This document shows positions 19,815-22,800 of a stretch of 64,000 bases of DNA, piece by piece. This stretch comes from Euglena gracilis (taxonomy: Eukaryota), in the NCBI GenBank assembly GCA_039621445.1, contig CP154954.1, positions 10,869,521-10,933,520 on the forward strand, written 5' to 3'. Numbering within the stretch: position 1 is the first letter of the stretch; each line of letters opens with the position of its first letter. Both the position numbers and the translations under genes were made by a program. A model generated the notes under the pieces. The model saw only the letters and a list, made by a program, of their open reading frames with translations, was not told the DNA's origin and ran no database searches.

Positions 19815-22800
19815 TCATGCGGCAGTCGAGGTTGTGACCTCGCGCAGGCCAAGCCCACCTCCCCCGGATGTCATAAACCCATCAAACCCGTCAATCCAGA
19901 CAGCTGACATTTTACCAAAAATAAATAAATAAAAATGACTAAAGACTCCCACACTTAAATTAGAAAAATATGCTGCATGAAATTTGGAGGAAAAAACCGA
20001 AAATAAAACGCCTGCAAAATAAATGCAAAAGACCTTCGTATTTATTCACATTTTTTCTGGTGGGAAAACTAAGGTACAGAATGATCCTTTTCTAATGAAA
20101 TGCACATGGGTAATGAACAGTGCATCAGATCATCGAACTCCGAAGTTATGAAAAGAATGGAATATGTACCAGGAAAATGCTGTCCACAAATATGAAAAGA
20201 ATATGCCCAGAAAAATAGTGCAAGATATGTTGCAGAATTTTGAAGTTTTTGTCAATCATTGCCTCATGGATAATGGGCTGAACTCCCTGGAGAAATGCGA
20301 GATATTCTTCGATCAAGAAGTCGGCCCTCAGGGCTTCTCATGCATTTCTATCAACCTCCGGTCAGACCATTGGGGGAGGGGGGGTCAGCCAGTGGCTTAT
20401 CTCCAGGTGTCCCTGCCTCTCCTCCCCCAGGTCTGAAACAGAAGCCCAGACCCCCACGCCAACATGCACCCTCCCAAAGGTGCGCCCCTTCAAAACCCCT
20501 GCCCCCTCCACTCTGGTCCAGTCGGGTGTTTTGGGCCGCCGGTGGCCGATGCCGTCAGGCTGGTCTGGTGGGGGGGGGCACACTGGGAAAACTTGTTCCA
20601 GGTCATTGCAAGGGATGGGGCCCAATTCAGGTCATGGTGACTGGTGTGCCGGATTTGCCGGATTTGCTGGAATTGCCGAATTTGCCAGATTTTGCTGGAT
20701 TTTGCCGGATTTGTAGGAGATCAGGAATAATTTAGGCTCCATTGGGCAGAAAAAGAGGCCGGAAAACCTTTCGAACCAAACTGCCAGCCAAACCTCATCC
20801 CTAAATCGGCCCAATCTTCGGTTCGCCAATCCTAATTTTAACCCCTTTCCTAACAATAAGCACGCACCCTCCCAGAACCCAACAAAAGTCGACCAAAAAT
20901 CTGGCAAATTCCCGGGGGCCGTGGAACCCCCCAAAAATGGGAAACACGTCGCGACTGCCCCCCCCCCACCCGGTAAATGACCAACGACCCCTCGGGTGTG
21001 GGGGGGGGGGGTTGCCGCTCGGCATAAAACCTTCTTGAAACAACAGCACTTTTTCTCGAACGGGAAAACACCAGAAAACTTCTTAAGATAAGCCACAATG
21101 GCACTCCCACCCTCCTGTTGTCCCACTAACCTGCTCCCCGGAACCGGATCAGACAATAAGGGGGGGGGGGACAATAATGGATAATTGGACCAGACAAAAA
21201 AAACCTTCCGTCGGCAGGGACCCAGGGACAATAAGGGGGGGAGGAGTGGTAATTGACACAGCTGGGGGACCTCACTGTGACAGTTTTCAAGCAAAAATAT
21301 TTTCTTGAAAAATAGGAGAGGTCACCGCCAGAGGTCTTGTACACAAATGGCTTGTCTGTGGCATAACCGTTGGCGCGTTGGTGCTGCTGGCCAAAGGTCA
21401 TCAGCAGGGTTCAATATTTAAGGTGGGGGGGTCAAAACCCCGCCTCCGGTCAAGGAAGGGGTGGGGACAGTCGGTCTAAGTGACTGTTTTTTGAGAAAAA
21501 TTTTGCCTCCAAAAATCGTCCAAAAAAGCTATTTTGGCAAAAACTTGCCAAAATGAAAAAAAAAAAAACTATCAGCGCAAAAAATGTGAGATTTTTGGAG
21601 GCGGTCCCGGGTACCTAATCCAAATCCCCTTCCGGTTCACGGGGAACCCCCCCCCTCTAACCCATCCACCATATTATACCAAACCCTGGTCATCAGCTGA
21701 GACACCAGATCCACCACCGTGCCCTTCGCAAATAATTCTGCGCCAGAATGGGCACCGCCAGCATTTTGATAAGCATCAATCAAAATTGAGAAACATCTTG
21801 GGGTGATGCAGTTTAATAGAGAATTAAAAAACGCACTGGTGACAGAACAGGGGAAAAGATAAAAGGTGCGTGCATGCATGTGTGTGCATGCATACATACA
21901 TGCACATGCACAAACATGTGCATATACATACACATACACAGACATATGCATATACATTTTCATATACATATACTTTTACATATACATATACATATACATA
22001 TACATATGCATATACATATACATATACATATACATATACATGTGCATATACATATACATATACATATACATATACATATACATATACATATACATATACA
22101 TATACATATACATATACATATACATATACATATACATATACATATACATATACATATACATATACATATACATATACATATACATATACATATACATATA
22201 CATATACATATACACAAACATATACATATACATATACTATACATATACATATACACATACATATACATATACATGGCAGCCATAATCTACATGCCCCCCC
22301 CGGGGGGGCCATGTAGATTATCCAGGGGGTCAAAATAGTTTTTTTTTGCGTTAATGATGGAATAGGGTTAGGTGCGCGACTTAGGGTTAGGGTTAGGCCT
22401 AACTTATAGACGGGTGTTCGGTGTACAAGTTAGACCTAACCCTAAGCCTAAGTCGCGCACCTAACCTTATTCCATCATTAACGCAAAAAAAATGCCCCCC
22501 CCCTGGACACACTACATGCCCCCCCGGGGGGGGGGGGCATGTAGATTATGGCTGCCATATACATGTACATATACATATACATATACATATACATATACAT
22601 ATACATATACATATACATATACATATGCATGTGCATATGCATATACATATACATGTAAACCCCCAAACATAAAGCCCCAAATATATATGTATGTATATAC
22701 ACATATACATATACATATACATATACATATACATATACATATACATATACATATACATATACATATACATATACATATACATATACATATACATATACAT

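Follow-up and report, generated by a model that had tools for sequence, protein, structure and literature searches.

A transposon-like insertion flanked by a perfect 8-bp duplication is probably spliced as a nonconventional intron in a G-domain protein gene of Euglena gracilis

A duplication-flanked insertion and its removal from the RNA

The analysed stretch of Euglena gracilis DNA (64,000 nucleotides of contig CP154954.1, here called the window) carries on its minus strand a gene for a P-loop G-domain protein. One coding exon of this gene is interrupted at 21.5 kb by a 284-nt element that resembles a MITE (a miniature transposable element with inverted repeats) and lies between two copies of an 8-bp target-site duplication. 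On the minus strand the layout is ...CAG CTGATGAC, then the element CAGGGTT ... AACCCTG, then CTGATGAC CTT.... The two copies of the 8-mer (21696..21689 and 21404..21397) are identical at 8/8 positions, and the element ends CAGGGTT and AACCCTG form a 7/7 inverted repeat that directly abuts them. Similarity between the two ends reaches approximately 29 nt in a gapped, imperfect alignment. One extra base matches by chance on each side, which brings the direct repeat to an effective length of 10 nt (GCTGATGACC) and means that a removal of 292 nt (284 + 8) can be cut in 11 equivalent registers. Such a removal is in frame. Both the 8/8 duplication and the in-frame removal of 292 nt had been claimed in an earlier reading made from the DNA letters only (the sequence-only reading), and both were confirmed. 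The longest stop-to-stop open reading frame (ORF) located wholly within the element is 44 amino acids long, and a Pfam search with the two short ORFs flanking the element returned nothing usable.

To follow the element in the RNA, reads of three RNA runs from poly(A)-type libraries (X21, X22 and X24) and of one DNA run (X1) were mapped to 17400-21880, a stretch picked to keep clear of long microsatellites. The RNA runs are tied to the DNA runs by the species label only. RNA reads join 21395 to 21688 and thereby leave out exactly 292 nt; ten letters fit on either side of the joint. It was present in 55 reads from all three RNA runs (X21, 16 + 16; X22, 12 + 9; X24, 2), and the 32 joint reads of X21 come from 32 start places. 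A joint of 21692 with 21399 had been proposed from the sequence, and these reads are compatible with it. RNA depth inside the element (bin 21450-21599) is 0 in X21, 0.01 in X22 and 0 in X24. The bin of the following exon 22 (21300-21449) has a depth of approximately 20, 14 and 0.9, and that of exon 21 (21600-21749) of approximately 13, 8 and 0.6 in X21, X22 and X24, respectively. Among the DNA contigs of run X1 the joined form does not occur (0 contigs), and a contig of 319 nt (21160-21478) crosses the junction between the downstream duplication copy and the element with no deviating letter.

All 11 registers yield the same mRNA, and none of them has GT-AG, GC-AG or AT-AC borders (0/11). A code for nonconventional splicing in Euglena, 5'-N3-CDG...CH'G-N5-6/purine (the slash marks the cut), has been determined by knock-in mutagenesis (Nomura et al., 2025, PMC12501133; this and the other papers given with a PMC number are cited for the parts of their text that were consulted). 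Only one of the 11 registers, 21691..21400, fits N3-CDG...CH'G-N5/R. In this register CAG occupies positions +4 to +6 and CTG positions -8 to -6 of the intron, and the downstream exon opens with a purine, the G at 21399. It is the same 5+3 register that the sequence-only reading had assigned. Because the reads cannot separate the 11 equivalent registers, we infer the exact cut positions from the code. The authors of the code put 'slidable' introns aside when deriving their motif (PMC12501133), and intron 21 is such a slidable intron. In the predicted fold, both in the minimum free energy and in the centroid structure, a terminal stem of 13 bp leaves 3 nt free at the 5' end and 5 nt free at the 3' end. 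The fold has a z score of -3.59, and none of 200 shuffled sequences folds as well. Intron 21 is thus likely to be a nonconventional intron of Euglena that is still young and was created by an element with terminal inverted repeats and a target-site duplication.

Table 1. Coordinates of the insertion, of the surrounding parts of the host gene and of a MITE-like family in the window.
Feature	Position	Strand	Description	Evidence
Coding part of host gene	19813..42567	-	23 exons, 22 introns; 680-aa P-loop G-domain protein (P0002)	protein mapped to window
Intron 20	21739..24689	-	2951 nt; nonconventional, AGG-CAG...CTG-GCGCA, then exon base G; duplication match 1/8	
Exon 21	21692..21738	-	residues 637 to ~652	RNA depth, loose ends, protein mapping
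Upstream copy of 8-bp target-site duplication	21689..21696	-	CTGATGAC; first 5 nt exonic, last 3 nt intronic	
Nonconventional intron 21	21400..21691	-	292 nt; GAC-CAG...CTG-CTGAT, then exon base G	RNA joint, code fit, fold
Inserted element	21405..21688	-	284 nt, non-coding, MITE-like	
5' arm of terminal stem	21676..21688	-	begins with inverted-repeat end CAGGGTT	
3' arm of terminal stem	21405..21417	-	finishes with AACCCTG	
Downstream copy of 8-bp duplication	21397..21404	-	first 5 nt intronic, last 3 nt exonic	
Exon 22	21329..21399	-	residues ~652-675	RNA depth, joints on both sides, protein mapping
Intron 22	19827..21328	-	1502 nt; non-canonical (GC..CG or GG..TC); ends can pair, GTGACCTC with GAGGTCAC	
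Copies of one MITE-like family	3052-3262, 5994-6259, 12771-12971, 31714-32036, 36611-36842			

The host gene and its introns

The host protein is identical or near-identical to EG_transcript_5013 of eukprot (P0002, 680 aa), in which we take 'EG' to stand for Euglena gracilis. Its relatives are a paralogue in the same transcript set, one more transcriptome protein and a UniRef-named protein of Eutreptiella gymnastica. The match to the transcript set together with the euglenid relatives shows that the host is a euglenid. A dinoflagellate (Amoebophrya) and a tunicate (Fritillaria) source had also been considered and were rejected, as both the transcript match and the CAG/CTG geometry speak for Euglena. 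The C-terminus of EG_transcript_5013 is identical to the product of three joints and is unbroken across the insertion site. Downstream of the 292-nt joint, RNA reads join 19826 to 21329 over 1502 nt (31 reads in X21, 27 in X22 and 2 in X24). Upstream of it, loose RNA ends at 21738 (27 reads in X21, 13 in X22) continue at 24690-24709, and the exon ending at 24690 is 100% identical to eukprot:EG_transcript_5013. An ORF located upstream of 21738 was considered as an exon and rejected, since it belongs to the intron.

The alignment of the four euglenid proteins is gap-free at the insertion site, with S649, Q650, M652 and G655-R660 invariant in 4/4. The insertion falls into the best-conserved C-terminal motif of this alignment, and the interrupted sequence must therefore be restored exactly. 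A metagenome scan yielded no orthologous euglenid locus with an empty site: its 80 loci are all generic P-loop matches to residues ~378-541 with 26-40% identity and were left out of the analysis. All four proteins end in D-C-x-x-M (residues 676-680, 19827..19813), with D676, C677 and M680 invariant. This end resembles a CaaX-type motif and may serve the G-domain protein as a lipidation signal.

Ten of the 22 introns of the host gene are readable as GT-AG, four (introns 10, 12, 20 and 21) fit the nonconventional code and eight are otherwise non-canonical. Intron 21 has 11 equivalent cut registers, compared to 1 to 8 in the other 21 introns. In the three other code-fitting introns the duplication positions agree in 4/8, 3/8 and 1/8. 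Such a decay in older introns is expected if the intronic halves of the duplication drift after insertion. No fit to the CDG/CH'G code was found for intron 22. The 122-nt intron 13 is non-canonical as well and follows neither rule; its pairing segments, CCAGGCTGT and ACAGCCTGG, are placed further inside from the cuts. An Rfam scan of the window returned 0 families and thus gave no hint on taxonomy or snRNAs.

Origin of the insertion

The arrangement of direct repeat and inverted ends at 21.5 kb exceeds chance. Exact 8-mers followed by CAG and, within at most 500 nt, by CTG and the same 8-mer occur four times in the window. Dinucleotide-preserving shuffles give 0.15 such arrangements on average and 2 at most, and 0/200 shuffles attain four. 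Some hits of this exact scan were rejected as elements. The hit at 41737-42165 is probably a local tandem-repeat artefact with an inverted repeat of 3 nt only, and those at 35104-36765 and 46671-48266 have inverted ends of at most 3-4 nt and are hits of a kind that chance would produce over such long spans.

A relaxed scan accepted duplications with at least 7/8 matches in which at least five of the next seven end positions are complementary. It gave seven hits, against a shuffle mean of 0.95; 0/60 shuffles reach seven. In shifted registers the same scan gave 0-5 hits, mainly tandem-repeat artefacts. One hit (46260-47903) extends over 1,644 nt and has CTG ends, and the other six are short elements. 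The element at 21.5 kb is outside these seven, with 4/7 complementary end positions beyond CAG, which is below the threshold. Together with the six short elements it ends in CAGG (7/7). Duplication-flanked elements with CAGG ends in the window include 499-942 and 15472-15720. One MITE-like family has at least five diverged copies in the window with 76-87% identity, several of which are flanked by different 8-bp repeats.

To this family belongs the CAGG-ended element at 31.7 kb (31706-32044, minus strand), with the duplication GCAGAAGC and the ends CAGGTG.../CAGGAG.... On the gene strand it would fit the nonconventional code, and the sequence-only reading had regarded it as an intron of its own. 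This could not be upheld, since the element is nested in the 947-nt intron 12 (32156..31210), which is of the nonconventional CGG...CCG type, and leaves the coding sequence unsplit. The statement that the two elements differ in their internal sequence holds: their local alignment score is 27, with a null maximum of 29, and thus shows no significant similarity. The wider proposal, that several families create introns by one rule, has support at the level of anatomy, from the shared CAGG ends and 8-bp duplications. In this window only the element at 21.5 kb is shown to make an intron by itself. Judged from the anatomy, it is plausible that more than one family might create introns in this way.

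The insert at 21.5 kb would have arrived by transposition, and its superfamily may be hAT-like. hAT elements generate an 8-bp duplication, have short terminal inverted repeats with the ends YARNG and prefer the target nTnnnnAn. The ends CAGGG, the 8-bp duplication and the target CTGATGAC all agree with these motifs, and the target of the 31.7-kb family does not fit the target motif. Merlin elements with an 8-bp duplication have been described in E. gracilis, the criteria being inverted repeats with a terminal 5'-GG and a duplication of 8-9 bp (PMC8101967). They share the 8-bp duplication and short terminal inverted repeats with the element at 21.5 kb, but Merlin was rejected, since the base beside the duplication is the C of CAG and not a terminal 5'-GG.

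Several observations weigh against the insertion of a transposon that is then spliced out. The perfect stretch of the inverted repeat is just 7 nt long. Searches with blastn (word sizes 7 and 9) found no relatives of the element in the 64-kb window, low-complexity matches aside. The X1 depth over 21450-21599 is 142.3, compared to 141.6 in the adjacent DNA, a single-copy depth at an identity of at least 95%. No transposase was found by Pfam in the 10 ORFs scanned of the 69 window ORFs with at least 170 amino acids. The X1 contigs leave 21600-21880 uncovered, so that only the window assembly supports the upstream junction. A variant at position 21342 hints at a possible difference in strain or allele between the RNA runs and the DNA run. 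In addition, a recently gained nonconventional intron with a similar repeat has been explained without a transposon: intron 4 of gapC from Euglena agilis strain ACOI 323 has an 8-nt direct repeat at its junctions, longer than in the other introns of that study, which its authors attributed to the repair of a double-strand break (Milanowski et al., 2016, PMC4770533). The single-copy depth is compatible with a diverged family, as the other family in the window keeps a perfect duplication at a copy likeness of approximately 80%.

Following that precedent, the repair of a staggered double-strand break could have captured filler DNA, the insert then not being a mobile element. We regard this as unlikely. 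It would agree with the single-copy state of the element, both in the window and in run X1; however, filler DNA has no reason to start with CAGGGTT and to end in the exact complement right beside the duplication, and no terminal stem of 13 bp would be expected of it. Moreover, six other short elements of the window end in CAGG and are flanked by 8-bp repeats, and one family there has at least five copies.

The joined reads could also derive from an allele or strain without the insertion, the inserted allele being silent or its transcripts being degraded. The species label is the sole link between the RNA and DNA runs, and at position 21342 approximately 30% of the RNA reads (X21, 13/42; X22, 9/31) have a T instead of the C that is the only base in the X1 contigs. 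This difference may reflect an allele, a strain difference or editing. However, approximately 70% of the RNA reads carry the window base at this position, and yet virtually none enter the element 60 nt away. X1 lacks the joined form, one of its contigs traverses the junction unbranched, and the two introns next to intron 21 are spliced although they are equally non-canonical. An empty allele is very unlikely to be the source of the joined reads.

It is just as improbable that the ordinary U2 spliceosome removes intron 21 at splice sites of an unusual kind, in the way known from Fritillaria or Amoebophrya. The machinery for nonconventional introns of Euglena is unknown (PMC12501133), and the spliceosome does act on the host transcript, in which 10/22 introns are readable as GT-AG. 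Against it, the lack of GT/GC-AG borders holds for all 11 registers, and intron 21 has every element of the nonconventional code as well as the hairpin geometry. That the repeat and the inverted ends came together by chance inside an ordinary old intron is hardly conceivable, even though 84.4% of E. agilis introns have short direct repeats on their flanks (PMC12501133), since 8/8 (10/10) and 7/7 matches are exactly juxtaposed, 0/200 shuffles reach the observed count and the 11 registers exceed the 1 to 8 of the gene's other 21 introns.

Transposition explains inverted, CAG-ended termini that abut a perfect duplication better than any of these rivals, and a transposon insertion that is spliced as a Euglena nonconventional intron is, in our judgement, the probable explanation of the locus as a whole. 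A non-autonomous DNA element of the cut-and-paste type, 284 nt long and with inverted CAGG ends, would have entered a conserved coding exon of the gene for the G-domain protein, duplicating 8 bp of its target. On the pre-mRNA the inverted ends would pair to form the terminal stem, which would display CAG 3 nt inside the 5' cut and CTG 5 nt inside the 3' cut, with a purine opening the next exon. The two spacers would be halves of the duplicated 8-mer, the upstream copy contributing its last 3 nt and the downstream copy its first 5 nt. Cutting would then take out the element and exactly one copy of the duplication and restore the reading frame scarlessly. Because 3 + 5 = 8, and the element is removed together with one duplication copy, the sequence present before the insertion is restored, a direct consequence of the DNA sequence and the published code. 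A bolder proposal, which we hold with somewhat less than even confidence, is that the 3-nt and 5-nt spacers of the code are in general the footprint of an 8-bp duplication, and that this type of splicing is a precise excision at the RNA level tuned to CAG-ended transposons. The tolerated 3' spacer of 6 nt might then accommodate 9-bp duplications.

Comparison with known introns and other repeats of the window

The origin of the nonconventional introns of euglenids has been debated since the 1990s, and the locus at 21.5 kb offers a clean, RNA-validated case. It keeps both hallmarks of a transposon, and the 3-nt and 5-nt spacers can be seen to be the halves of the duplication. A MITE origin of these introns has been hypothesised (Milanowski et al., 2013/14, PMC3935182), a 2024 review remarked on junction repeats that resemble duplications (PMC11282704), and the 2025 paper on the code still calls their origin unclear (PMC12501133). 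An explicit link between an 8-bp duplication and the 3+5 spacers was not found in the literature searched, with supplements and subscription papers lying outside this search. With the nonconventional introns described in PMC12501133, intron 21 shares the lack of GT-AG borders, the positions of CAG and CTG, the purine, the pairing of the ends, the euglenid host and the efficient removal; in contrast to them, it still bears a perfect 8-bp duplication and inverted ends. The case adds to the known nonconventional introns with 8-nt repeats, one having been reported at a gained intron in 2016. It differs from that gapC intron 4 in species and gene, and the consulted part of PMC4770533 draws no connection to a transposon duplication or to 3+5 spacers.

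Comparable insertions are known from spliceosomal introns. Introner elements, which Huff and colleagues reportedly described in 2016 from Micromonas and Aureococcus, are similar in that a non-autonomous DNA transposon in an exon is spliced out exactly, with the duplication supplying part of the splice geometry. Introners, including those of dinoflagellates, are reviewed in PMC11282704. They have canonical GT/GC-AG borders, duplications of 3 bp or another type and spliceosomal removal, whereas intron 21 has 0/11 canonical registers and follows the hairpin-dependent rule of euglenids. The transposon-derived introns of Amoebophrya (PMC7789003) and Fritillaria borealis (Henriet et al., 2019, via PMC11282704) are, like intron 21, non-canonical, with inverted ends and direct repeats spanning the junctions. 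However, the repeats in Amoebophrya are 3-5 nt long (PMC7789003) and the host is a dinoflagellate and not a euglenid, while Fritillaria, a tunicate, favours AG-AC/AG-AT and removes its introns by the spliceosome (PMC11282704).

If intron 21 arose by transposition, the question of origin turns into a prediction that can be counted genome-wide: in young nonconventional introns, repeats of 8 nt should occur in the 5+3 register. These introns should also form families that end in CAGG and have an autonomous partner. Exact removal would also explain why insertions of this kind into coding exons are harmless.

Repeats of other types were found elsewhere in the window. At 17850-18150, 18450-18750 and 19350-19800 the summed depth of X1 contigs rises from approximately 110-200 to between 800 and 147,000. 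Such depths mark repeats of very high copy number, located within intron 22 and downstream of the stop codon, and many contigs join across them. Within intron 6, a tandem array with a unit of approximately 272 bp (38230-39520) is flanked by long microsatellites of the (GA)n/(CA)n type; this array gave false hits in the shifted-register controls. At approximately 55500-64000, ORFs and blast matches recur every ~2.66-2.68 kb (for example at 57889, 60547 and 63223), which suggests that a long tandem repeat occupies the window's right end.

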